A DNA stretch of 64,000 nt from Eubacteriales bacterium (GTDB taxonomy: Bacteria > Bacillota > Clostridia > Oscillospirales > CAG-272), in assembly GCA_045613985.1 (NCBI GenBank), contig JAZLCA010000001.1, forward strand, positions 616 through 64,615, given 5' to 3'. A program made the position numbers and the translations under genes. The notes beneath the pieces were generated by a model. It worked only from the letters and a program-made list of their open reading frames with translations. It had not been told where the DNA came from and made no database searches. Shown here one piece after another: positions 8,017-51,638 of this stretch. How positions within the stretch are numbered: the stretch's first letter is position 1; the number at the start of each line of letters is the position of its first letter.

Positions 8017-10494
8017 ATGGCAATTCGAGTATTGCTTACCGTCTTGCTGTTGACAACAATCGTGGTGTTGTTTGCAGCGTGTCAGCATGAGCATGTTTAT
8101 GCTGCATGGACGGTAGAAAAACAAGAAACGTGTACCGAAAACGGTATCGAAGTTCGTGTGTGTGAATGCGGCGAAAAAGAACGCAGGGACATTCCGATGA
8201 AAGAACACACACCCGTTACTGATGAAGCCATTGCCGCAACCTGTACAACGGATGGCAAGGCGGAAGGCTCTCACTGCGGCGTATGTGAAACGGTCCTTGT
8301 AGCACAGAACGTAGTTCCCGCAACGGAACACAGCGTCGTTACCGACGAAGCCGTTGCTCCGACCTGTATGACGGACGGTAAAACGCAGGGCACTCACTGT
8401 GGCACGTGTCAGGCTGTCATTATTCCTCAGGTCGGAATTCCTGCAACGGGCCATGCTCCTGTTAACGACGACGCCATTGCTCCTACCTGCACGACGGACG
8501 GTAAAACGCAGGGCGCTCACTGTGGCACGTGTCAAGCGGTCATTATTCCTCAGGTTAATATTCCTGCGCTGGGCCATATTGCTGTGAAGGATCTCGCCGT
8601 TGCCGTAACCTGCACGACGGACGGAAAGACGGAAGGCTCTCACTGCGCCGTATGCTTGGAAGTTCTCGTGGCGCAAAACGTTATTCCCGCAACGGGCCAC
8701 ACTTCCCTGAAGGATGCCGCCGTTGCTGCAACCTGTACGACGGACGGAAAGACGGAAGGCTCTCACTGTGGCGTATGCCAGACAATTCTCGTAGCACAAA
8801 ACGTTATTCCCGCCACCGGCCACACCTCCGTGAAGGATGCTGCCGTTGCTCCGACCTGTACGGCGAACGGTAAGACGGAAGGAAGTCACTGTGGCACGTG
8901 CGCAACTGTTCTGGTGGCGCAAAACATCCTTCCTGCGACGGGACACAGCACCGTGAAGGATGCTGCCGTTGCTCCCACCTGTACAAAGGATGGTAAAACG
9001 CAGGGTACTCACTGCAAAACGTGTCAAGAAATCATCATTCCCCAGGTGAAGATTCCCGCATTGGGTCATGCCTCTGTGACCGATGCCGCCGTTGCCGTAA
9101 CCTGTACAACGGACGGTAAGACGGAAGGCTCTCACTGCGCCGTATGCTCAGAAGTTCTCGTGGCGCAAAATGTCATTCATGCAACGGGACACAAGATCGT
9201 TACTACTGCCGCCGTTGTCGCAACTTGCACGACGGATGGTAAGACGAAAGGCTCTCACTGCAGCGTGTGCGCGGAAGTTGTGGTAGCACAGGACGTCATT
9301 CCCGCAACGGGTCACAAGTATAACGATGGAAAGATTTTGGAAGAGGCCACATGTACTACCCAAGGCACCAGAACGTTCACTTGTACGGTTTCTGCTTGCG
9401 GCCATAGCTATACCGAGTCCTACTCGCTGCCGGCCTATACGGCAACGGAGATCTATAATCAGTCGATTGAGTTCGTTGGAGAAATCATTACTTATGATAG
9501 GGAGGGCAAAGAGTTTGCCCAGGGATCGGGATTCGTTATTTCTTCTGACGGCAAGATCGTTACAAATTATCATGTCCTCGAAGATGCCTACTCCGCAAAA
9601 ATTACGATCAATGGAACTACATATGACATCGCGTACGTTTTAGCCTATGATGCCCACATCGATCTGGCTGTGCTGAAGATCAATGCATCCGGTTTGCCTG
9701 TGGCGCGTATTTGCAAGCAACCCGTAAATGTTGGTGAAACCGTATATGCCCTTGGTTCGCCTCGAGGTATGACCAATACGTATTCGCAGGGCATTGTAAC
9801 GTACGCAAACAGAGTGGTTGACGATGTTTCGCACATTCAGCACGATGCGTCGATTGCTGCCGGTAATTCGGGCGGTCCGTTGATTAACGTTTACGGAGAA
9901 GTTATAGGCATCAACACCTGGACGGTGATTAATTCTCAAAACCTTAATTTCGCCGTATCCGTAACCGAACTGGACAACTTGGTATATGGAACCCCGCTTA
10001 GTATGGCAGAGTTCTATCAAAAGGAATTCGACGTGTTCTTTAAGTTGAAGAATTACATTACGGAAAACGGTTCTTACAACGCAGACACGGGAATGTATAT
10101 GCTCATTCTTGGCGAGTCCTATTCTTCGGATCGTTCGCTCAAGTATACCAGAGCAGCGTTTTATGACGTGAGTGACAATATCGTGATCCTTGCTTTGATT
10201 GTCAACGATGGAGAGCTTTGGCTGTTTATTGAAATCGACGAGGGGTATGATGGCATATATAATTGGATGTACTTTGACGATTATGGGTACGAAATGAGCG
10301 GTGCCGTCACTGCGGCTACCTTTACATCGAATACTCTGTTGGGATACAGCTACACCAACATCCGTTCTTCCTCAATGAAAGCTACTGTGCGCGAATTGGC
10401 GTCCTCGATGATGTCTTTGCTTTGTATGTTTATCAACGAAGACGGTGCGCCGATTGGAGTGACGGCTGAAGATCTGTATTTCTATAATTATTAA
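8017..10494 (+). CDS. Lipoprotein with tandem His/Cys-rich 41-aa repeats, an S1C (trypsin/HtrA-like) serine protease domain and a C-terminal domain of unknown function
   Basis: Lipobox LFAAC. Catalytic motifs TNYHV, DLAVLKI and GNSGGPL are present. Confidence 0.85.
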   Translation: MAIRVLLTVLLLTTIVVLFAACQHEHVYAAWTVEKQETCTENGIEVRVCECGEKERRDIPMKEHTPVTDEAIAATCTTDGKAEGSHCGVCETVLVAQNVVPATEHSVVTDEAVAPTCMTDGKTQGTHCGTCQAVIIPQVGIPATGHAPVNDDAIAPTCTTDGKTQGAHCGTCQAVIIPQVNIPALGHIAVKDLAVAVTCTTDGKTEGSHCAVCLEVLVAQNVIPATGHTSLKDAAVAATCTTDGKTEGSHCGVCQTILVAQNVIPATGHTSVKDAAVAPTCTANGKTEGSHCGTCATVLVAQNILPATGHSTVKDAAVAPTCTKDGKTQGTHCKTCQEIIIPQVKIPALGHASVTDAAVAVTCTTDGKTEGSHCAVCSEVLVAQNVIHATGHKIVTTAAVVATCTTDGKTKGSHCSVCAEVVVAQDVIPATGHKYNDGKILEEATCTTQGTRTFTCTVSACGHSYTESYSLPAYTATEIYNQSIEFVGEIITYDREGKEFAQGSGFVISSDGKIVTNYHVLEDAYSAKITINGTTYDIAYVLAYDAHIDLAVLKINASGLPVARICKQPVNVGETVYALGSPRGMTNTYSQGIVTYANRVVDDVSHIQHDASIAAGNSGGPLINVYGEVIGINTWTVINSQNLNFAVSVTELDNLVYGTPLSMAEFYQKEFDVFFKLKNYITENGSYNADTGMYMLILGESYSSDRSLKYTRAAFYDVSDNIVILALIVNDGELWLFIEIDEGYDGIYNWMYFDDYGYEMSGAVTAATFTSNTLLGYSYTNIRSSSMKATVRELASSMMSLLCMFINEDGAPIGVTAEDLYFYNY
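8206..9312 (+). repeat. 9 x 123-bp in-frame tandem repeats (41 aa each), with degenerate units on both sides
   Basis: Unit H-x11-C-x10-C-x2-C, for example HTSLKDAAVAATCTTDGKTEGSHCGVCQTILVAQNVIPATG. Confidence 0.9.
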
Positions 10495-10548
10495 GATCAT
10501 TAATTCAAGGAATTGACAAGAAAGGGAGTCCGACAGGATTCCCTTTCT

Positions 10549-10653
10549 TGGTCGAGGTGACAAGATTCAGAACTTAGTTTTGCGCCGAAAATTCAGCAGT
10601 AACCCATAGTTTCGCGCAGCGCAAAACGAGCAAATGCTGTCGCATTTGCGAAG
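10549..10653. repeat. Copy A of a ~105-nt repeat that begins with a degenerate tRNA-Pro 3' end
   Basis: TGGTCGAGGTGACAAGATTCAGAAC is the tRNA 3' 24 nt with a 1-nt insertion. Further copies lie at 10718-10825 and 17439-17545. Confidence 0.7.
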
Positions 10654-10723: not shown

Positions 10724-10931
10724 GGTGACAAGATTCAGAACTTAGTTTTGCGCAGAAAATTCAGCAGTAACCCATAGTTTGGTGTAGCGCAAAACGAGCA
10801 AATGCTGTCGCATTTGCGAAGTCCTGAATCCGTGAAGCATCAAGCGATAAAACAAAAAGCAGGGATAACCCTGCTTTTTGTTTTATGGTCGAGGTGACAA
10901 GATTCGAACTTGCGACTTCTACGTCCCGAAC
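10724..10931. repeat. Left 208-bp direct repeat bracketing the island
   Basis: Aligns without indels to 17439-17646, with about 8 mismatches by eye. Confidence 0.9.
10886..10931 (-). pseudogene. tRNA-Pro 3' fragment (46 nt, from the anticodon loop to CCA), an att-type duplicate
   Basis: Identical to 17601-17646. Identity stops inside the anticodon loop. Confidence 0.85.
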
Positions 10932-11172
10932 TTATGTCATTTGTTGAACTTTCGGTTATTACTTACAATCTTTACAAGCTTTATTTTAACATGGCGCTGC
11001 GGATCCGTGCGCTCTTGACGGCGCTTTTTTGTTTTACAGGAATTGATTTATGCCGGTGCGCGGCAGAATGCGTAACAAGCGCGTGGGATTGCGTAACACA
11101 TCACAAACGGTTTCATGTAAATACGCATGGGAGAGTTTGCAAAAAGGTTGCGAATAACTCAATTAAAGGCTG

Positions 11173-11201: not shown

Positions 11202-11255
11202 GTCATCATTAAAATTCAAAGACAAGTTATTGTTGCGTTGGTGGGAGGACGAAAA

Positions 11256-11582
11256 ATGTCGCTATCAAAAGAAACGATAGGAAAAAGGATTTCAAATGCA
11301 AGAAAAGCAGCGGGGTTAACACAAGAGGAACTATCTGAAAAAATCGGCATATCCGAAAAGTATTTAAGTCGAATAGAATGTGGAAAGCAAGTTCCAAGCA
11401 TCACCATTATTTGGAGAATATGTGAGGTGCTACGTATTTCGGTGGATAATTTGCTTTCGCTAGGTCAGATTACGGCTTCTGATAGTAGCATACATAATGA
11501 GATCGCCCATTTCTCAACATATGAGCAGGAGCAAATCATGGAGATCATAAAAATTATCAAAAAGATAAAAAATCAACCGTAA
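11256..11582 (+). CDS. XRE-family helix-turn-helix transcriptional regulator
   Basis: ATG at 11256 follows GGGAGG. Contains GKRISNARKAAGLTQEELSEKIGISEKYLSRIECGKQVPS, a classic HTH_3 pattern. Confidence 0.85.
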   Translation: MSLSKETIGKRISNARKAAGLTQEELSEKIGISEKYLSRIECGKQVPSITIIWRICEVLRISVDNLLSLGQITASDSSIHNEIAHFSTYEQEQIMEIIKIIKKIKNQP

Positions 11583-11585
11583 GTT

Positions 11586-11629
11586 CAACCGATAGGTATA
11601 GAGATATACTTATCGGTTGTTTTCTTTTT
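11586..11629 (+). terminator. Intrinsic terminator
   Basis: CAACCGATA...TATCGGTTG stem followed by TTTTCTTTTT. Confidence 0.8.
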
Positions 11630-11724: not shown

Positions 11725-12564
11725 ATGAGAAAAATAACAAATGAAACAATACAATCATTCAATGACTATCTAATTAACGAGGAAAAGGCAGCGGCAACCA
11801 TCACTAAGTATCTGCATGATGTGGGCGGATTTCAAATATGGCTTGGCGAACAAGAACTATGCAAAGCGGCAATTCTTGCTTATAAGGCATATCTTTGCGA
11901 GCATTACGCCCCAGCAAGTGTCAATGCCGCGCTCTCGTCACTCAATAGTTTTTTCAATTTTATGGAGTGGTACGATTTGAGAGTGAAGAACCTTAAAATC
12001 CAGAAGCAGATATTTGCTTCAACGGACAAGGAGTTGACTAAAGCCGAGTATGATCGCCTTTTGAGTGCGGCAAAACAGAAGAAAAACGAGCGTTTGTATC
12101 TCTTGATGCAGACGATCTGCTCCACGGGTATCCGCGTATCCGAGGTGCGCTATGTTACTGTGGAGGCAGTTGCACGCGGTATTGCCGAGATCAACTGCAA
12201 GGGCAAGCGCAGACAGGTGTTCTTGCCCAAACAGCTTTGTCAGATCTTGAAGCAGTATATCAAGGAACAAAAAATAACAAGCGGAGCCGTGTTCGTAACG
12301 AAAAACGGCAATCCGCTGGATAGATCGAATATCTGGAGTGATATGAAAAAACTGTGTAAGGCGGCGAACGTGTCGGGAAAGAAGGTCTTTCCGCACAACC
12401 TCCGTCACCTTTTCGCGCGCACTTATTACAGCTTGCAAAAGGACATCGTGCGCTTGGCTGACATTCTCGGGCACAGTAGCGTGAACACAACGAGAATTTA
12501 TACAATGGAAACAGGGGAGATACACCGCAGACAAATTCAGAAATTAGGGCTTTTGCGGTGTTAA
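11725..12564 (+). CDS. Tyrosine recombinase (Xer/invertase-like, 279 aa, no arm-binding N-domain)
   Basis: RBS GAAGGAGGA. SAM-like N-domain. Catalytic residues in TGIRVSE (R), HNLRH (H-x-x-R), LGHSS (H) and TRIYT (Y). Confidence 0.9.
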   Translation: MRKITNETIQSFNDYLINEEKAAATITKYLHDVGGFQIWLGEQELCKAAILAYKAYLCEHYAPASVNAALSSLNSFFNFMEWYDLRVKNLKIQKQIFASTDKELTKAEYDRLLSAAKQKKNERLYLLMQTICSTGIRVSEVRYVTVEAVARGIAEINCKGKRRQVFLPKQLCQILKQYIKEQKITSGAVFVTKNGNPLDRSNIWSDMKKLCKAANVSGKKVFPHNLRHLFARTYYSLQKDIVRLADILGHSSVNTTRIYTMETGEIHRRQIQKLGLLRC

Positions 12565-12584: not shown

Positions 12585-12608
12585 ACCACATAATTCTCAT
12601 TATGTAGT
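12585..12608. repeat. Inverted repeat, left copy (ACCACATAATTCTCATTATGTAGT)
   Basis: Exact reverse complement of 12811-12834. Confidence 0.95.
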
Positions 12609-12631: not shown

Positions 12632-12660
12632 ATTTTACCACTTGTCAACATATTTGTCAA
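12632..12660 (-). promoter_or_regulatory. Near-consensus promoter TTGACA-17-TGgTAAAAT inside the invertible segment, currently reading leftward
   Basis: -35 at 12660-12655, TG at 12640-12639, -10 at 12637-12632 (minus strand). Confidence 0.65.
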
Positions 12661-12810: not shown

Positions 12811-12834
12811 ACTACATAATGAGAATTATGTGGT
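12811..12834. repeat. Inverted repeat, right copy
   Basis: ACTACATAATGAGAATTATGTGGT. Confidence 0.95.
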
Positions 12835-12847
12835 GAAAGGAGGGCCT

Positions 12848-14236
12848 ATGTCGATTATCGAAGTTATTAAATATGAAGGCGACAATAGTACATTCATATG
12901 GAAACACCCTTGCGAGGATTTCAATACGACCACACAGCTGATCGTACACGAATCGCAAGAGGCGATTTTCTTCGCAAATGGTCAACTTCTTGATGTGTTT
13001 GGAGCGGGCAGGCACACACTTGAAACGCAAAACATTCCGTTGCTCAGAAAAATAGTAAATATACCGACAGGTGGCAAGTCAGCGTTTCACTGTGAGGTCT
13101 ATTTTATCAACAAAACAGTGCAAATGGCTCTTAAATGGGGAACGGATTCTAAGGTGCGATTTCTTGATACCAATCTTGGCATTCCTTTGGAGATTGGTGC
13201 GTGTGGAGAAATGAATCTTGCCGTTGCCGATTCGAGAAAGCTTCTTTTGAAGCTCGTTGGAACGATGCGTGGTATTGCTTGGGGAGAAAATGGTATGGGA
13301 TTTACAAAATCCCTTCAAACTTCCTTCCGCCCATTGATTTCCACCGCAGTAAAATCACATTTATCAACAGCGATAAAATCAAATAATATAAACATTCTTG
13401 AGATTGACGAAAATCTTGAAACGCTTTCAAAAATCATGCACGAGTGCATTATTGGAGGCTTTGAGGAATACGGACTCACGATTCCTCAGTTTTATATAAC
13501 CAATATCGCACTCCCCGAAAACGATCCAAATTTTAAGAGAATGAAGGAATTATATACAGTTTCCTTCCAGACAAGAATGATTCAGGCGGATGCCCTTATA
13601 AGAACAACTCAGGCTGATGCTGAAGCGGGGGTTACAGCAGCGCGCCGCAAGATTGAAATGGAGCGTCAGATTACCGAAACAGAGGTCGCAAAGAGTGAGG
13701 CTGAACGTGATCTTATTCGCGCTCAAACAGTAGCCCAAGCTGCAAAGATGACGGGCTTTGCCGAGGCTGAAATTATGGCCGCGCAAGGCTATACCAAGAA
13801 AGATATACTGGCAACAGAAGTGCAGAAGGCATACGCCGAAGGTCTTGGCAATATGACGATCAACGGTGGGGGCGGTGTGGCAGGCGATATGATTGGACTT
13901 GGCGTTGGAATGGCGGCGGCGGGTGCCGTCGCGCCTCAACTCGGCGAAATGTTCAAGGGCTTTGCTCCGACGGTTCCCACACAGACACCCGAAGTTAAGT
14001 GCGCTAAATGCGGCGCGGCTCTTCCCGCAAACGCGAAGTTCTGTTTGGAGTGTGGAGAAAAAGTTGTTACTCCCCCACCCTCTGATATGATCGTTTGCCC
14101 CGAATGTGGTAATACGGTTGCGAAAGGTAAATTCTGCCCCGAGTGCGGACACAAGTTGGTAACTGTTTGTCCCAAATGCGGAAAAGATGTAGTCGCCGGT
14201 GCTAAATTCTGCCTTGAATGCGGCGAAAAGTTATGA
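12848..14236 (+). CDS. YdjI-type SPFH (Band-7-like) protein with a coiled coil and three C-terminal zinc ribbons
   Basis: RBS AAGGAGG at 12837-12843. N-terminus IEVIKYEG..FIWKHP...LIVHESQEAIFF.NGQ...EVYFINK...KWGT. The C-terminus has 3 x CxxC-x9-10-CxxC. Confidence 0.8.
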   Translation: MSIIEVIKYEGDNSTFIWKHPCEDFNTTTQLIVHESQEAIFFANGQLLDVFGAGRHTLETQNIPLLRKIVNIPTGGKSAFHCEVYFINKTVQMALKWGTDSKVRFLDTNLGIPLEIGACGEMNLAVADSRKLLLKLVGTMRGIAWGENGMGFTKSLQTSFRPLISTAVKSHLSTAIKSNNINILEIDENLETLSKIMHECIIGGFEEYGLTIPQFYITNIALPENDPNFKRMKELYTVSFQTRMIQADALIRTTQADAEAGVTAARRKIEMERQITETEVAKSEAERDLIRAQTVAQAAKMTGFAEAEIMAAQGYTKKDILATEVQKAYAEGLGNMTINGGGGVAGDMIGLGVGMAAAGAVAPQLGEMFKGFAPTVPTQTPEVKCAKCGAALPANAKFCLECGEKVVTPPPSDMIVCPECGNTVAKGKFCPECGHKLVTVCPKCGKDVVAGAKFCLECGEKL

Positions 14237-14250
14237 TGGAGGGCGCGACA

Positions 14251-14652
14251 ATGAAAAAAAGCTTCACTCCACACATAATACTTGCAATTCTATTTGGGTT
14301 GTTTAACGTTGTTGCCTTTGCGATTCCGTCGGATAAAACGTCTACGTTTTGGGTGGCGTATGGATTTACAGCCGCTATGTTTTGCGTTGAGGTGATTGTT
14401 TTACTTATGGCGTTTCCAAAGGATAATACGGCAAAAAAACAATTTTTGTCGTGGCCTCTTATCTGTGTTGGCACGACATACTTCATCATTCAAACGATTT
14501 TGTTTTTCCCATTCAAGCTCTTCCCCAGCATTCCCTCGTGGATAGCCGTTATCGTATTTTCTCTTGTATTCGGAATAGCTCTCATTTGCATTATTGCAAC
14601 TAAAGCAAGCGCTAATTCAATTAAGAATTATGACGAAGCGCGCAAGAGGTGA
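14251..14652 (+). CDS. Small integral membrane protein (about 4 TM helices)
   Basis: ATG at 14251 follows GGAGGG. Four hydrophobic stretches. Confidence 0.7.
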   Translation: MKKSFTPHIILAILFGLFNVVAFAIPSDKTSTFWVAYGFTAAMFCVEVIVLLMAFPKDNTAKKQFLSWPLICVGTTYFIIQTILFFPFKLFPSIPSWIAVIVFSLVFGIALICIIATKASANSIKNYDEARKR

Positions 14653-14657
14653 TTGGT

Positions 14658-15827
14658 ATGGCGATACTGAAGGAACGCTGTCCCAATTGCGGCGGAACAA
14701 TAATTCTTCCGCCGAATGCAAGCGTCGGAGAATGCGATTACTGCGGTGTGACCTATTCTCTGTCAGAATTGCAAAAAATCAAGGATGCAATTAATGAAGG
14801 ACAGCAAATAACAAAAGAAAGCGATTGCAACCTTGACGAAGACGAATCTTATGAATCTGCACTTGATACGAGCGAGGCGGACGAAATTTCACTTGGTGAA
14901 CTTTGCAAAAAAGCCGAAATAGCTCTTGAGTCTGAGCAATGGCAGATTGCAAACAGCTTCAGTAATGAAATATTACGCAGAGATCCCAAATTTGCCAAAG
15001 CTTATCTTTATAAGCTTCTTGCAGAACATAAAGTGTTCAAGAAAGAAGAACTGGCAAACTTAAGAAAGCCGTTTGATGGCAGCGATAATTACCGCTTGCT
15101 AATTAGATTTGCTGATTTGTATCTAAAGTCGGAAATTGAAAATTACAGCGAAGCGGTAAAAGCAAGATATCAAGCGGAAACGTTGGAAAATCAATATCAA
15201 GCTTTATGTAACCAAACAAAAACCGCCTCTACCGAACAAGACTATCAAAATTTGGCTAACGGATTCCATAGCCTTGAGGACTACAAAGATTCTAAAAAGC
15301 TTTCCGCGGAATATTTGAAGAAATTCAAGAGCGCAAATAGGCAGTCGCAAGCCAAAGCAAAAAGAAAAAAGTTTTTTATAAAACTTATAATCTTCGGGAT
15401 TGTTTTTGCTATTATCGGAGTGCCTATATTAAAGAAAGCATCCTATCGTGGTGGACTGTTTTCGGTGGAAGTCACAGATAAGGTCAACGTTGATTACGAC
15501 GACTATACTGCGGATTTTGTATTTAAGTTCAACATTATTAACGATAGCTGGCACAATGCCAATTACTTGGAAGGATATATAACCATTAGTGACGCGGAAG
15601 GCACAGTCCTTGCAAGTGGTGGCAATTGGTTTAGCGGAGCGATTTCAGCTAAAAACTCGAATTATCATGAACTATCGTTTGATCTTGACCGAAGTGCTGC
15701 TACAACCCGACTTTGGAATACCGATTTTTCAGACCTTGTTATTAAGTACAGAATCACCGAAATCCATTTTGATGACGGAACTGTAAAAGAATATACTGGA
15801 AAAGACATTATCGTGAACAAGCCTTAA
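14658..15827 (+). CDS. Zinc-ribbon / TPR-like / single-TM protein with a beta-rich C-terminal domain
   Basis: ATG at 14658 follows AGAGGTG. Contains CPNC-x14-CDYC, the TM segment FFIKLIIFGIVFAIIGVPIL, and a C-terminal domain of about 130 aa. Confidence 0.7.
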   Translation: MAILKERCPNCGGTIILPPNASVGECDYCGVTYSLSELQKIKDAINEGQQITKESDCNLDEDESYESALDTSEADEISLGELCKKAEIALESEQWQIANSFSNEILRRDPKFAKAYLYKLLAEHKVFKKEELANLRKPFDGSDNYRLLIRFADLYLKSEIENYSEAVKARYQAETLENQYQALCNQTKTASTEQDYQNLANGFHSLEDYKDSKKLSAEYLKKFKSANRQSQAKAKRKKFFIKLIIFGIVFAIIGVPILKKASYRGGLFSVEVTDKVNVDYDDYTADFVFKFNIINDSWHNANYLEGYITISDAEGTVLASGGNWFSGAISAKNSNYHELSFDLDRSAATTRLWNTDFSDLVIKYRITEIHFDDGTVKEYTGKDIIVNKP

Positions 15828-15874
15828 TTGGCTGAAATTTGTATTTGCAGATTTCAAATATATTAATGATGTTA

Positions 15875-15891
15875 TCTCTTGCTTTGAGTAA
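15875..15891. repeat. 17-bp motif TCTCTTGCTTTGAGTAA, inverted relative to the copies at 16798-16814 and 16831-16847
   Basis: Exact reverse-complement match. Confidence 0.9.
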
Positions 15892-15941
15892 TAAAAACAT
15901 TGGAGATTTATAACATTTTATTTGTATGGAAGGAAACTCAA

Positions 15942-16772
15942 ATGAAAAAAATATTAGCAAAATTAAAACATATGTGGAAGGATCCAATCAACACAATTGA
16001 GGAAGCGGATGCGCGCAAGAAAGAGATATTGCCTTGGTTGTATGGTTGCATTGGAGCTGCAGTTTTGTTCTGTGGATTGTCAAATGTTGGGCCGCTCGGT
16101 TTCTTGATGATCTTTGGGTTGGTAGCTATTTTCGGAGTGATGGCGTTTGGATTTATGCTTTTTGTTACTGTCAAGGCTAAAGAGAAGTTTGGCGCTCTTA
16201 CCTGTAACAACTGTAACACCATGGCAACAATCAAAACCCCTGAGGAATATGAGGCGCAGGTATCTTATGTCTATGACGTTGCATTTAAGGCAGAGTATGA
16301 GGGTATAAGCCACCCTCAAAGCAACAACGGTGTAATTTCCGAGGTTAGAGCCAAGGCACATGCTTCGGTCGCCATTTCGATAGACCTTAAGTGTGCTAAC
16401 TGCGGCACCGTAAAGCATCTTGAATACGTAATCACTCCTTTCAAGTGCTCTATTATAGAGAAGAAGGTTCTTGTAAGAGACGTTGAACTTGTAAAGATGC
16501 GACTGGAGAATGCTGTTAAGGAAGTTGTTAACGATTTTAACGACCTTGAAAAGCGCGTAAAAATTCCCTTTACCATTCACAGCATTCACAATCCCAAGTA
16601 TGAGGAGAGAACTAAGCCTCAAGTTGGAAACGACGGAGTTGCGTTCCCCCACTATAACGGTGTAAAGATCGATTATCACAGAACTCCCGAAGAAATGATT
16701 AGAGGATTCTTCCTTGAGAACGAACTTAATGGTAAGATCATCGATCCTAGCAAGCCCAAAAAGTCAAAGTAA
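15942..16772 (+). CDS. Membrane protein (2 N-terminal TM helices) with a four-Cys (CNNC...CANC) domain
   Basis: ATG at 15942 follows GGAAGGA. Hydrophobic N-terminus. Confidence 0.65.
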   Translation: MKKILAKLKHMWKDPINTIEEADARKKEILPWLYGCIGAAVLFCGLSNVGPLGFLMIFGLVAIFGVMAFGFMLFVTVKAKEKFGALTCNNCNTMATIKTPEEYEAQVSYVYDVAFKAEYEGISHPQSNNGVISEVRAKAHASVAISIDLKCANCGTVKHLEYVITPFKCSIIEKKVLVRDVELVKMRLENAVKEVVNDFNDLEKRVKIPFTIHSIHNPKYEERTKPQVGNDGVAFPHYNGVKIDYHRTPEEMIRGFFLENELNGKIIDPSKPKKSK

Positions 16773-16794
16773 TCAATTATACATATCAATAGAT

Positions 16795-16860
16795 ATTTTA
16801 CTCAAAGCAAGAGAACATATATAAAACATTTTACTCAAAGCAAGAGAACATATATAAAAC
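16795..16860 (+). repeat. 2 x 33-bp perfect tandem repeat (ATTTTACTCAAAGCAAGAGAACATATATAAAAC)
   Basis: Each unit contains TTTACT-17-TATAAA. A partial third unit follows. Confidence 0.9.
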
Positions 16861-16899
16861 ATTTCACTTATATTGATTGAATCAAAAGAGGAATAAAAA

Positions 16900-17151
16900 A
16901 TGATATTTAAGCAAGTTAGATTAATTTTCGATGAGTATGGAAACTGTATATTTCATGGTGATAAATGTATAGTAACACCAAATGAACCAGCCGCTTCTAC
17001 TAAGCAGGTTTATGGCAAGGAAGGCTATAGCTTTATGAAGGAAGAAGAATACTTGACCGCTATTGCTGCAGAAGGTTGGGCATTGCACACTGCTAATTAT
17101 TGTGTTCTTGGAAGGCAAGAAGCTCACTATTTCTTATTTGTGAAAGAATAA
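16900..17151 (+). CDS. Small hypothetical protein (83 aa)
   Basis: RBS AAAGAGGAA. No recognised domain. Confidence 0.5.
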   Translation: MIFKQVRLIFDEYGNCIFHGDKCIVTPNEPAASTKQVYGKEGYSFMKEEEYLTAIAAEGWALHTANYCVLGRQEAHYFLFVKE

Positions 17152-17438: not shown

Positions 17439-17677
<239 letters not shown>

Positions 17678-17685
17678 ATATTTGG

Positions 17686-17791
17686 TTTTTGTAGCCGGCG
17701 GGAGTCTTGCGACTTCTGCGTCCCGAACGGCCGAGTCGCACTCGAAGAGAGTGCGCGAGGAGAAGCTCATACCAAGCTGAGCCACACCTCG
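17686..17791 (-). pseudogene. tRNA-Pro-derived chimeric element (not foldable as a tRNA)
   Basis: The first ~23 nt are identical to tRNA-Pro. A 35-nt insert with a 7-bp hairpin follows, then CGTTCGGGACG..AGAAGTCGCAAG. There is no T arm or acceptor 3' strand. Confidence 0.4.
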
Positions 17792-17812
17792 AAATTGCGG
17801 ATACGCTTTGAA

Positions 17813-50813: not shown

Positions 50814-51638
50814 ATGATGAAACGAGTATTTGCCCTGATGCTGGCAGTTTTGATGCTGTGCGCACTGGTGGCGTGTTCCAACAAGGACGACGGAGTGACG
50901 GATGACCCTGTCATCGACGTCGAAATCAAGCTGTCCACCTACACCGACAGCAACGGAGATACTTTTACATACGAATACCTGAACAGTACGTCGGTTACCA
51001 TTACCGGCTTTTCCGGCAGTGATGAGCCTCACCTTGTAACCATCCCCGCCGTTATCGTGGAAGAAGTGAAGGGCGAGGGCAATACGACCGAGAAGGTAGA
51101 GAAGCAGGTTATTGCCATTGCCGACAGCGCTTTCTTCGCCAATTCCAACATTTCCGCAATCAAGTGTGACGCTCAGCTGCAAAGCATCGGCCGTTATGCC
51201 TTTGCTTACTGTGAGGCTCTCGTGACGGTTGAATTGCCCGACACGCTGGATACCATTGGAGACGGTGCGTTCTATAACTGCTCCGCTCTGACTACCGTCG
51301 ATTTGGGTGACGGCCTTGCCGGTATTGGCGAGCACGTCTTTTACAACTGCCCTCTTTTGACCGGCGTTGTTTTCCCTGCAAGCCTTCAGTCCATCGGTGC
51401 TGCTGCATTCCATGGATGCGTGGCTCTGACTGCTGTTGAGCTTCCCGAGGGCGTCGTTTCCGTTGGCGCACAGGCTTTCTATAACTGCACCGCGGTTGAG
51501 AAGCTGACTCTGCCCGCATCCCTGACCGAGATCGGCAAATGGGCGTTCAATCCCTTCGTTCGCACCCTGCCCGATGAGGCGGTCACCGTTCCCGAGGGCT
51601 CCAAGGCGGCCGAGCACATCGCGCAGTTCCGTCCTTAA
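50814..51638 (+). CDS. BspA-type leucine-rich-repeat lipoprotein
   Basis: Lipobox LVACS. Repeats of the form F..C..L..V.LP..L..IG..AF. Confidence 0.8.
   Translation: MMKRVFALMLAVLMLCALVACSNKDDGVTDDPVIDVEIKLSTYTDSNGDTFTYEYLNSTSVTITGFSGSDEPHLVTIPAVIVEEVKGEGNTTEKVEKQVIAIADSAFFANSNISAIKCDAQLQSIGRYAFAYCEALVTVELPDTLDTIGDGAFYNCSALTTVDLGDGLAGIGEHVFYNCPLLTGVVFPASLQSIGAAAFHGCVALTAVELPEGVVSVGAQAFYNCTAVEKLTLPASLTEIGKWAFNPFVRTLPDEAVTVPEGSKAAEHIAQFRP

Follow-up and report, generated by a model that had tools for sequence, protein, structure and literature searches.

SPFH proteins occur in all domains of life and their bacterial roles are poorly understood; in plants, the SPFH proteins of the HIR type work with immune receptors. 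To our knowledge, the YdjI/SamI branch of these proteins has been studied only in Bacillus subtilis. In this species, the soluble SamI is recruited to the membrane by SamG and SamH and then recruits PspA (PMC8581546; bioRxiv 10.64898/2026.02.06.704340), and YdjG begins with two Zn ribbons, continues with an NTF2-like domain and ends in a transmembrane (TM) helix (PMC11237479). The present analysis concerns a five-gene locus, here named P1 to P5, whose first gene encodes an SPFH protein of this branch, and which is carried in a 64,000-nt stretch of DNA (hereafter, the window) from a Eubacteriales bacterium of CAG-272 (GCA_045613985.1, contig JAZLCA010000001.1, positions 616-64,615). The reading preferred here, held with somewhat more belief than doubt, is that the locus is an island-borne phase-variable operon in which a SamI-like SPFH scaffold and two membrane partners descend from an SPFH-associated transmembrane TIR receptor system whose TIR domain was lost. 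Homologous loci compared with the window are designated by L-numbers (L001, etc.).

Gene content and predicted products of the operon

The five genes of the locus and their products are the following:
12848-14236, + strand: P1, 462 aa, soluble SPFH protein (Band_7_1) of the YdjI/SamI type; coiled coil, Gly-rich hydrophobic segment and, at the C-terminus, three Zn ribbons
14251-14652, + strand: P2, 133 aa, protein with four TM helices (4-TM), short form of a family of about 230 aa
14658-15827, + strand: P3, 389 aa, single-pass membrane protein with a Zn ribbon, TPR, a TM helix and an Ig-like beta-sandwich
15942-16772, + strand: P4, 276 aa, two TM helices, then a beta/alpha domain in the cytoplasm with four Cys
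16900-17151, + strand: P5, 83 aa, small soluble protein

These co-directional genes are separated by 14, 5, 114 and 127 nt, and a GGAGG-type ribosome-binding site (RBS) precedes every one of them. A previous sequence-only reading of this DNA had described this arrangement correctly, and its account of the domains in P1-P5 was borne out by Pfam, hydropathy analysis and AlphaFold2 (AF2) models. Residues 26-225 of P1 matched Band_7_1 (PF13421) with 131 bits (cut-off 24; E 5.8e-38), the same Pfam family as YdjI, as that reading had proposed, and the match to the classical Band_7 (PF01145) stayed below cut-off (E 1.4e-4). The P1 tail was assigned by Pfam to DZR/Zn_Ribbon_1, with three CxxC-x9-10-CxxC units; the protein has neither a TM nor a hairpin anchor, and no sequence relative of it was found among solved structures. 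Hydropathy analysis revealed four hydrophobic segments in P2, one in P3 (237-262), two in P4 and none in P5.

The AF2 model of P3 (pLDDT 87, 26 homologues) presented a four-stranded Zn ribbon (4-34), a disordered acidic linker (48-63), a TPR-like helical block (79-205), a TM segment (237-262) placed within a long helix and a beta-sandwich (268-378), for which Foldseek retrieved generic Ig-like folds only, namely those of ApaG/DUF525, GH2 Ig-like and the TMEM106B luminal domain, with a TM-score of about 0.5. According to this model, the Zn ribbon and the TPR block would face the cytoplasm and the Ig-like beta-sandwich would face the outside. The P4 model (pLDDT 84) had no significant fold match in the PDB, where the best hit had an E of 0.014 and hits of the TULIP/SMP-like kind were too weak to build on; its residues C88, C91, C151 and C154 were invariant across 35 homologues. 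Searches with hidden Markov models (HMMs) placed P2-P5 in no specific Pfam, NCBIfam or PADLOC family, and P5 had no match in Pfam, PADLOC or phages. None of P1-P5 had a match in PADLOC-DB v2, in which only the XRE regulator encoded upstream was hit, by generic HTH models. In agreement with the sequence-only reading, no ATPase, nuclease, protease or toxin domain was recognized among the products of the module, and no PspA gene lies within the 64-kb window. Nor does the window contain an effector domain or any TPM or TIR gene.

The conserved core and its TIR-receptor relatives

The gene set is not a chance arrangement, the whole or parts of it recurring in more than 100 independent loci. Relatives of P1 were found in more than 561 loci of GTDB species representatives, and the best 80, which were 52-84% identical, were nearly all labelled as gut or rumen Clostridia or other Firmicutes, with a few labelled as E. 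coli, Sodaliphilus or Treponemataceae. Neighbour clustering covered 86 P1 loci and placed a P2-type gene directly 3′ of P1 in 71 of them, a tyrosine recombinase gene (REC) directly upstream of P1 in 13 and a divergent XRE gene in about nine; it also yielded a further family, C1, whose 74 proteins (450-1,330 aa) are spread over 54 loci. What is conserved is P1-P2 plus a third gene of the P3 type, and not a fixed five-gene set. The five-gene module of the sequence-only reading does recur in one other lineage (L114-L117), and P3 and P4 are also found without P1-P2.

The C1 proteins begin with a Zn ribbon, which is followed by a first TPR block and a TIR_2 domain (E 1e-9 to 1e-12); next come another TPR block, a helical region of YKDS repeats and a TM helix, and the C-terminal part is an ectodomain that varies among LRR_5/BspA, WG_beta_rep, DUF6273 and other kinds. 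Among solved structures, those closest to the C1 TIR were the TIR domains of TLR15 and TLR2, with which the WxxxE glutamate aligns, and the comparison of C1 with PADLOC gave weak matches only, to PDC-S66. As a separate observation, the window itself contains, at about 50990-51620, a BspA-type leucine-rich-repeat (LRR) coding region that is 35-40% identical to the C1 ectodomains of L019 and L029 and has no SPFH gene linked to it.

The strongest lead on function came from the comparison of P2 and P3 with this far larger family, of which both are truncated members, the full-length third gene of the family bearing a TIR domain; this relation was beyond what the sequence-only reading could see. The P2 profile retrieved at least 1,248 clusters at 50% identity (E <=1e-3), and the 133-aa short form accounted for two of these 1,248. 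Since the members of the family are almost all of 220-235 aa, the window P2 is devoid of a cytoplasmic C-terminal domain of about 100 aa. Similarly, P3 aligned by hhalign to the post-TIR part of C1 (probability 99.7, E 8.7e-26), its columns 79-228 corresponding to C1 316-464, and both have in common the N-terminal Zn ribbon, the second TPR block, the YKDS module and the TM helix; domain mapping revealed that P3 is without the approximately 275 C1 residues that comprise the first TPR block and the TIR. That the C-terminal domain of P2 and the TIR block were lost jointly suggests that both parts cooperate in the full system. The P3 family comprises 46 clusters among 5.8 billion proteins; its open reading frames (ORFs) are intact over 40-100% identity, and the ectodomain is as conserved as the TPR region.

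Within a very large operon family of Clostridia, the P1-P2-P3 trio represents a rare, reduced branch. As in this family, P1 is followed in the window by a P2-type 4-TM gene; the TIR_2 domain of the third gene is absent from the window, where P3 aligns to C1 only outside the TIR. The parent system has the look of a TIR receptor of immunity or conflict that is scaffolded by an SPFH protein. The window P1 is 81-84% identical to P1 of the TIR-type operons L017-L019 and only 44-47% identical to that of L006 and L117, in which P2 reaches 72-73% and P3 60-76%. Therefore, the modules were re-assorted. Moreover, the same recombinase and invertible promoter segment (inverton) were found upstream of parent-type operons (L026, L036, L055 and others). 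Full-text literature searches, which covered part of the journals, retrieved no account in which an SPFH module is associated with invertons or with TIR receptors. We know of no report of an SPFH module as phase-variable cargo. The phase-variable SPFH/TIR-receptor operon family of gut Clostridia is large and apparently undescribed.

The invertible promoter and its recombinase

Between the XRE regulator and P1, the following features were identified:
11725-12564, + strand: REC, 279-aa tyrosine recombinase, predicted cassette invertase (Phage_integrase, 6.3e-30)
12585-12608, unstranded: left inverted repeat and recombinase core site, ACATAAT-TCTC-ATTATGT inside ACCACATAATTCTCATTATGTAGT
12632-12660, - strand: sigma70-type promoter inside the cassette, TTGACA-17-TAAAAT with extended TG, directed away from P1
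12720-12790, + strand: two conserved hairpins, the second with a T-run, putative terminator
12811-12834, unstranded: right inverted repeat, with the P1 RBS (GAAAGGAGG) directly after it

The cassette of about 250 bp is bounded by perfect 24-nt inverted repeats, has REC 20 nt upstream and contains a strong promoter that scores 11/12; inverted repeats around a promoter and an adjacent recombinase gene constitute the anatomy of an inverton. REC is XerA/XerD-like, with a weak likeness to FimB/E, and falls below all NCBIfam cut-offs. Each arm of the inverted repeat corresponds to the recombinase core site ACATAAT-N5/6-ATTATGT. The switch is assembled OFF for P1, because the cassette promoter lies on the minus strand and the hairpins and T-run of the + strand face P1; in this state, the hairpin/T-run would act as a terminator shielding P1 from read-through.

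This organization is conserved. The repeats, promoter and terminator were found in the same orientation in L001, L006, L011, L012 and L118, and the position and strand of the promoter are also shared by L026, L036 and L055. Both hairpins were kept in the cassettes of L001, L006 and L011, as was the order XRE-REC-P1, and in L006 the substitutions are compensatory, matching in both repeat arms. A perfect repeat of at least 16 nt between REC and P1 was present in 12 of the 13 loci with REC directly upstream, and a repeat of at least 14 nt in only one of 67 P1 loci without REC. In addition, scanning the species-representative genomes for the core site revealed 35 loci, nearly all beside a REC homologue (45-95% identity).

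Inversion was demonstrated for this recombinase/repeat family, on homologous switches that drive other operons. In three Faecousia metagenome-assembled genomes (MAGs), L130 and L128/L148 have colinear flanks with 81-86% identity, and the repeat-bounded segment of about 285 nt (3396-3675 in L130) is inverted between them, with 88% identity; the same flip pattern of the repeat-bounded segment was observed between L123 and L145. The REC of the Faecousia invertons is 51-53% identical to that of the window and has the same core site, and these switches sit upstream of a glycan-type operon encoding a helicase (five HA domains) and a DegT aminotransferase. The ON/OFF switch proposed by the sequence-only reading has thus been substantiated in its anatomy and in the inversion of its family, the copy in the window being assembled OFF. 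An inverton of the same type, represented by its terminator end and right repeat, was also seen in L112 (30-170; JAEIGA011232737.1). Since the gene that it precedes is not P1-like, the REC/inverted-repeat system controls several cargo types.

At the P1-linked switches, three contigs (L101, L119, L120) are interrupted within the left repeat, and L100 (1-460; ENA ERZ27316918, k141_615610) carries an inverton as in L011 with an alternative left junction. Instead of the REC 3′ end, the left flank of L100 holds the beginning of a divergent gene of the P1 type (MAIADIIKYEGDNSTFIWKHPCKDF...), whose RBS is mirrored; the cassette promoter is directed into this gene. L100 could reflect a switch that alternates between two SPFH modules, an inversion that joined two loci or a chimeric assembly, and this junction, together with the broken contigs, hints at heterogeneity at P1-linked switches. 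Scans of JGI metagenomes returned no match for the window-type right repeat plus RBS and three for the core site, none of them informative on orientation.

Proposed mechanism

In the proposed mechanism, REC would invert the cassette between its 24-bp inverted repeats. In the OFF state, the sigma70 promoter would be directed back to the REC gene with the terminator facing P1; in the ON state, after inversion, it would lie just upstream of the P1 RBS and would drive P1-P2-P3 and probably also P4-P5, the expected ON junction being the promoter end of the cassette joined to ACTACATAATGAGAATTATGTGGTGAAAGGAG. P1 would be a cytoplasmic SPFH oligomer of the YdjI/SamI type, and it is proposed that P2 and P3 dock it under the membrane, as SamG and SamH do for SamI in Bacillus subtilis; by this analogy, the window module plausibly works like SamGHI. 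The window form keeps the scaffold and a conserved, sensor-like ectodomain, and, because the TIR was lost, it would act as a pure envelope scaffold/sensor or via the appended membrane protein P4. The gene content, the homologies, the gene linkage, the anatomy of the switch and the inversion within its recombinase family are secure; what we infer is that P1 docks at the membrane, that the switch also drives P4-P5 and that the module serves in stress or in defence, including the abortive infection raised by the sequence-only reading.

P4, P5 and mosaic loci

P4 has 113 homologous clusters. In the lineage that shares the five-gene set (L114-L117), identity to the window is 47% for P1 (397 aa), 72% for P2, 76% for P3, 89% for P4 and 73% for P5. 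The set of five is therefore real, though facultative, and P5 is truly a conserved gene. In L001, L006, L011 and L012, P3 is followed not by P4-P5 but by a 248-297-aa soluble protein (d1) and a YidD-domain 2-TM protein, and every mobile P3-type locus carries an extra downstream membrane protein, either P4 or the YidD-domain 2-TM protein. P3 and P4 also occur away from P1-P2, adjoining a divergent XRE gene. In L106-L110, P4 stands alone in ordinary surroundings of the chromosome, accompanied by a small, divergent XRE gene. In L002, P3 lies beside HipA and AAA_15/AAA_21 genes.

In L118-L120, P4 is the last gene of a REC-controlled module that comprises a TIR-less P3-like protein (702 aa), a P1-like protein (628 aa) and a P2 of the long form. 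The P1-like protein of L118 (3039-4925) has four additional N-terminal Zn ribbons besides the C-terminal ones, and the gene preceding it encodes the P3-like protein, the ectodomain of which has 28% identity with the P3 ectodomain. The idea that P4 is unrelated cargo was softened after its repeated linkage to SPFH modules in L114-L120. As for a phage origin, phage genomes gave only one weak match for P1 and none for P5, so that the module is not phage-borne.

P4 is also bracketed by a repeated element:
15875-15902, unstranded: upstream arm of the P4-bracketing element, kept in L114-L117 and weaker in L008 and L118
16787-16860, unstranded: downstream arm, with two perfect 33-nt tandem copies (16795-16827 and 16828-16860)

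A weaker third copy lies after P5 (17175-17189). The inverted element around SPFH-linked P4 genes, CTTGCTTTGAGTAAA / TTTACTCAAAGCAAG, has about 17-30 nt, and a related palindrome, TACTCAAAGATTGAGTA, was found inside the promoter of stand-alone P4 genes (L106). A second inverton formed by these repeats was not supported, the recombinase core site being absent from them. Because the related palindrome lies within the stand-alone P4 promoter, the element bracketing P4 is more likely to be an operator.

The island at tRNA-Pro

The features that delimit the island and those of its left part are the following:
10724-10934, unstranded: left direct repeat (att-like), with a copy of the tRNA-Pro 3′ 49 nt (10886-10934) and 162 nt of downstream sequence
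11253-11582, + strand: XRE-family HTH regulator, 109 aa (Pfam HTH_3, 5.8e-16)
11586-11619: intrinsic terminator after XRE (terminator scan)
17439-17649, unstranded: right direct repeat (att-like), overlapping the 3′ part of tRNA-Pro
17601-17677, - strand: tRNA-Pro (CGG), integration target (ARAGORN; Rfam 64.7 bits)

The region at 10.9-17.4 kb of the window is a small horizontally acquired island placed at the 3′ end of tRNA-Pro. It is AT-rich, has about 6.5 kb and is bounded by 211-nt direct repeats that are 96% identical and both carry the 3′ 49 nt of the tRNA; the GC content is 0.36-0.46 at about 10.5-17.9 kb versus about 0.55 in the flanks. Direct repeats with a tRNA 3′ end and deviant composition are what characterizes a tRNA-integrated island; the foreign composition and the location next to a tRNA had been anticipated by the sequence-only reading, which had also recognized the XRE regulator and the apparent switch. 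A third, partial copy of the att-like repeat was detected by three-way alignment at 10545-10653, and degenerate copies of the tRNA 3′ end occupy the first ~35 nt of each repeat copy (10713-, 17428-), which suggests several successive integrations at tRNA-Pro.

The sole integrase-type gene in the island of the window is the 279-aa REC. Its assignment as the island integrase was rejected, since REC tracks the inverted repeats and is found at chromosomal P1 loci and beside a separate 313-aa integrase. This extra integrase, which is not in the window island, is encoded upstream of XRE in the sister islands L001 (5623-6564) and L011 (5653-6594), and these sit at another site, beside a GGGtGRT-family gene. 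Directly to the left of the window island, at 8017-10494 (+ strand), an 825-aa protein is encoded with about ten Cys-rich repeats of ~37 aa (TCTTDGKTEGSHCxxC...) followed by a Trypsin_2 serine peptidase domain (1.2e-29). On its other side, a tRNA-like remnant adjoins tRNA-Pro at 17683-17800 (- strand); it closely resembles tRNA-Pro in its 5′ half and T-arm, which are separated by about 35 additional nt, and it was called by neither ARAGORN nor Rfam.

Alternative explanations and significance

Several observations weigh against the explanation of the window operon proposed here. Every P1-linked inverton was assembled OFF, with no assembly in the ON orientation; the resemblance of P3 to YdjG is limited to the N-terminal Zn ribbon, with a pairwise E of 4e-4; P1-P5 are without PADLOC matches and those of C1 are weak; and the window has no effector domain. 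Moreover, P3 alone (L002, L003), P3-P4 (L008) and P4 alone (L106-L110) all occur without P1-P2, so that the proteins do not have to form an obligate complex, and L004 has P1-P2-P3 among housekeeping genes, without recombinase or island.

This L004 trio, whose housekeeping neighbourhood has no mobility genes, would suit an ordinary Psp-type envelope-stress scaffold, in which P1-P2-P3 would be a Clostridial counterpart of SamGHI, stabilizing the membrane and recruiting a PspA/ESCRT-III protein from a gene located elsewhere, and the island and the switch would be incidental. The common Pfam family and tail architecture of P1 and YdjI, the partner with a Zn ribbon and a TM helix as in YdjG and the lack of an effector domain in the window point in the same direction. 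Such a scaffold is nevertheless unlikely: neither PspA nor TPM/YdjH was found in the 64-kb window or beside about 100 Clostridial P1 loci, the operon is repeatedly under an invertible promoter, and the canonical third gene has a TIR and swappable ectodomains that would be superfluous in a housekeeping stress operon. The placement of the window copy on a tRNA island, together with the lack of PspA, also distinguishes the set from a routine pspA operon, as the sequence-only reading had supposed. The TIR of the parent family, with its conserved WxxxE glutamate aligned to TLR TIRs, is among the arguments for an anti-phage or abortive-infection module, in which P3 would sense an envelope event, P1 would organize the complex and P4 (or P2) would replace the TIR as a membrane-damaging effector. 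The weak C1 matches to PDC-S66, the phase variation and island location, which suit a costly defence gene, the extra membrane protein (P4 or the YidD-domain one) downstream at every mobile P3-type locus and the HipA and AAA_15/AAA_21 neighbours of P3 in L002 agree with it. This function is rather improbable, however, given that P1-P5 have no PADLOC match, that P4 presents no recognisable toxin or pore fold and is elsewhere a stand-alone, XRE-regulated gene in ordinary chromosomal contexts, and that most of the 80 P1 loci appear to lie outside evident defence islands. The system is, in addition, essentially absent from phage genomes and hence offers no hint of counter-defence.

A phase-variable system of surface display or adhesion, with the P3 ectodomain shown or hidden at the surface and P1-P2 as a clustering platform, would suit the finding that invertible promoters of the same recombinase family also drive a helicase-DegT operon of the glycan type; the LRR_5/BspA, WG_beta_rep and DUF6273 ectodomains of C1 are typical of surface proteins, and that of P3 is an Ig-like beta-sandwich. 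It would, in turn, leave unexplained the large and highly conserved cytoplasmic part (Zn ribbon, TPR, TIR), and the P3 ectodomain is small (~125 aa), membrane-adjacent under a Gram-positive wall and conserved rather than diversified, all of which makes this explanation very improbable. The truncation of both P2 and P3 relative to more than 1,000 full-length relatives could also mark a decaying remnant, a system broken and left without function by the losses of the TIR and of the P2 C-terminal domain. This is scarcely credible: the short P2 and the TIR-less P3 stay together, with ORFs intact over 40-100% identity, in dozens of metagenomes independent of one another, every domain of P3 is conserved, the ectodomain included, and the pair is found with two P1 subtypes and was hence re-assorted and kept.

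A wider proposal, which goes beyond the TIR-less, phase-variable scaffold operon favoured here and is put forward tentatively, with doubt outweighing confidence, is that the window holds a TIR-less offshoot of an undescribed and widespread phase-variable class of gut Clostridia, in which a YdjI-like SPFH scaffold and its 4-TM partner organize single-pass receptors that resemble inverted TLRs, with a variable ectodomain (LRR, WG repeats or another kind) on the outer side and TPR, TIR and a Zn ribbon on the inner side; these would be envelope sensors of immunity or conflict. The reduced P2 and P3 would then be a regulatory or decoy version, or one signalling through P4. The locus exposes a family with at least 1,248 P2 clusters (50% identity), in which an SPFH protein is genetically tied to transmembrane TIR receptors, often under an ON/OFF DNA switch, and the analysis also defined a family of recombinases and their core sites (ACATAAT-N5/6-ATTATGT), which controls operons of several kinds in gut Clostridia. 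If the link between SPFH protein and receptor is functional, it would provide a testable model of SPFH proteins as scaffolds for receptor/effector assembly, recalling the plant HIR proteins, and possibly a new class of envelope-level immunity in abundant gut anaerobes, and the window would represent a natural effector-less variant that separates the function of the scaffold from that of the TIR.

Comparison with known systems

The pspA-ydjGHI operon used for comparison was that of B. stercoris, a close relative of B. subtilis, in which it was located by a published primer sequence (PMC8581546). P1 is 22% identical to YdjI over the SPFH domain (E 4e-14), and YdjI, itself composed of Band_7_1, a Gly/Met-rich segment and a Zn ribbon, scored 148.7 bits on PF13421. 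P3 matched YdjG only in the first N-terminal CPNC Zn ribbon (27% over 55 aa), and its assignment as a YdjG orthologue was rejected for this reason. A homology between P2 and YdjH was also rejected, since YdjH is a protein of the TPM-domain type with no relation to P2; a tblastn search with YdjH found nothing in the window, no TPM match was obtained in P2-P5, and no PspA or TPM/YdjH homologue was adjacent to P1 in about 100 Clostridial loci. Consequently to these comparisons, the likeness to the Ydj operon that the sequence-only reading had pointed out was retained for P1, which is clearly homologous, and reduced for the partners, P3 having only the Zn ribbon and the TM helix in common with YdjG.

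The window locus thus shares with SamGHI the soluble Band_7_1 protein with a C-terminal Zn ribbon, and three of five SamGHI features, namely a YdjG-type partner, a YdjH-type TPM protein and pspA in the operon, are missing from it. P1 and YdjI/SamI are both Band_7_1 proteins with no TM, a Gly/Met-rich low-complexity segment and one or more C-terminal Zn ribbons, and in both operons the SPFH gene has two membrane partners, one of them with a CPNC-type N-terminal Zn ribbon and a TM helix. In contrast to the B. subtilis operon, the window is without pspA, has a reversed gene order and encodes a 4-TM protein in place of the TPM-domain YdjH; P3 presents TPR and an external Ig-like domain, whereas YdjG has a second Zn ribbon and the NTF2-like domain, and P1 has an extra coiled coil and three ribbons. 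The control also differs, being an invertible promoter on a mobile island in the window and, as published, sigma-W in B. subtilis.

Classical SPFH operons (flotillin with NfeD/YqiJ-YuaF, HflK/C with FtsH, stomatin with NfeD) likewise combine an SPFH gene, presumed to be an organizer, with small membrane partners, but P1 matches PF13421 strongly and PF01145 only below the cut-off, and the window has no NfeD, protease or YqiJ-type partner. With regard to TIR immune proteins such as Thoeris ThsB and the Toll-like receptors, a likeness exists only for the relatives of the window proteins, since C1 has an extracellular LRR/repeat domain, one TM helix and a cytoplasmic TIR; the window protein is without TIR and has no ThsA-like partner, and the topology of C1 is reversed in relation to Toll-like receptors, its TIR being N-terminal. 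The Clostridial SPFH-P2-TIR operons are similar to the window in P1, 52-84% identical, and in the P2 homologue directly downstream, and differ from it in the ectodomain, which in the window is a small conserved beta-sandwich and not LRR, WG repeats or DUF6273. Finally, although the window REC is a distinct XerC/D-like protein, the locus resembles the tyrosine-recombinase invertons, such as those of C. difficile RecV, E. coli fimS with FimB/FimE and gut bacteria, in the short inverted repeats around a promoter placed between the recombinase gene and the operon, in the terminator that would guard the OFF state and in the presence of both orientations among homologous loci.

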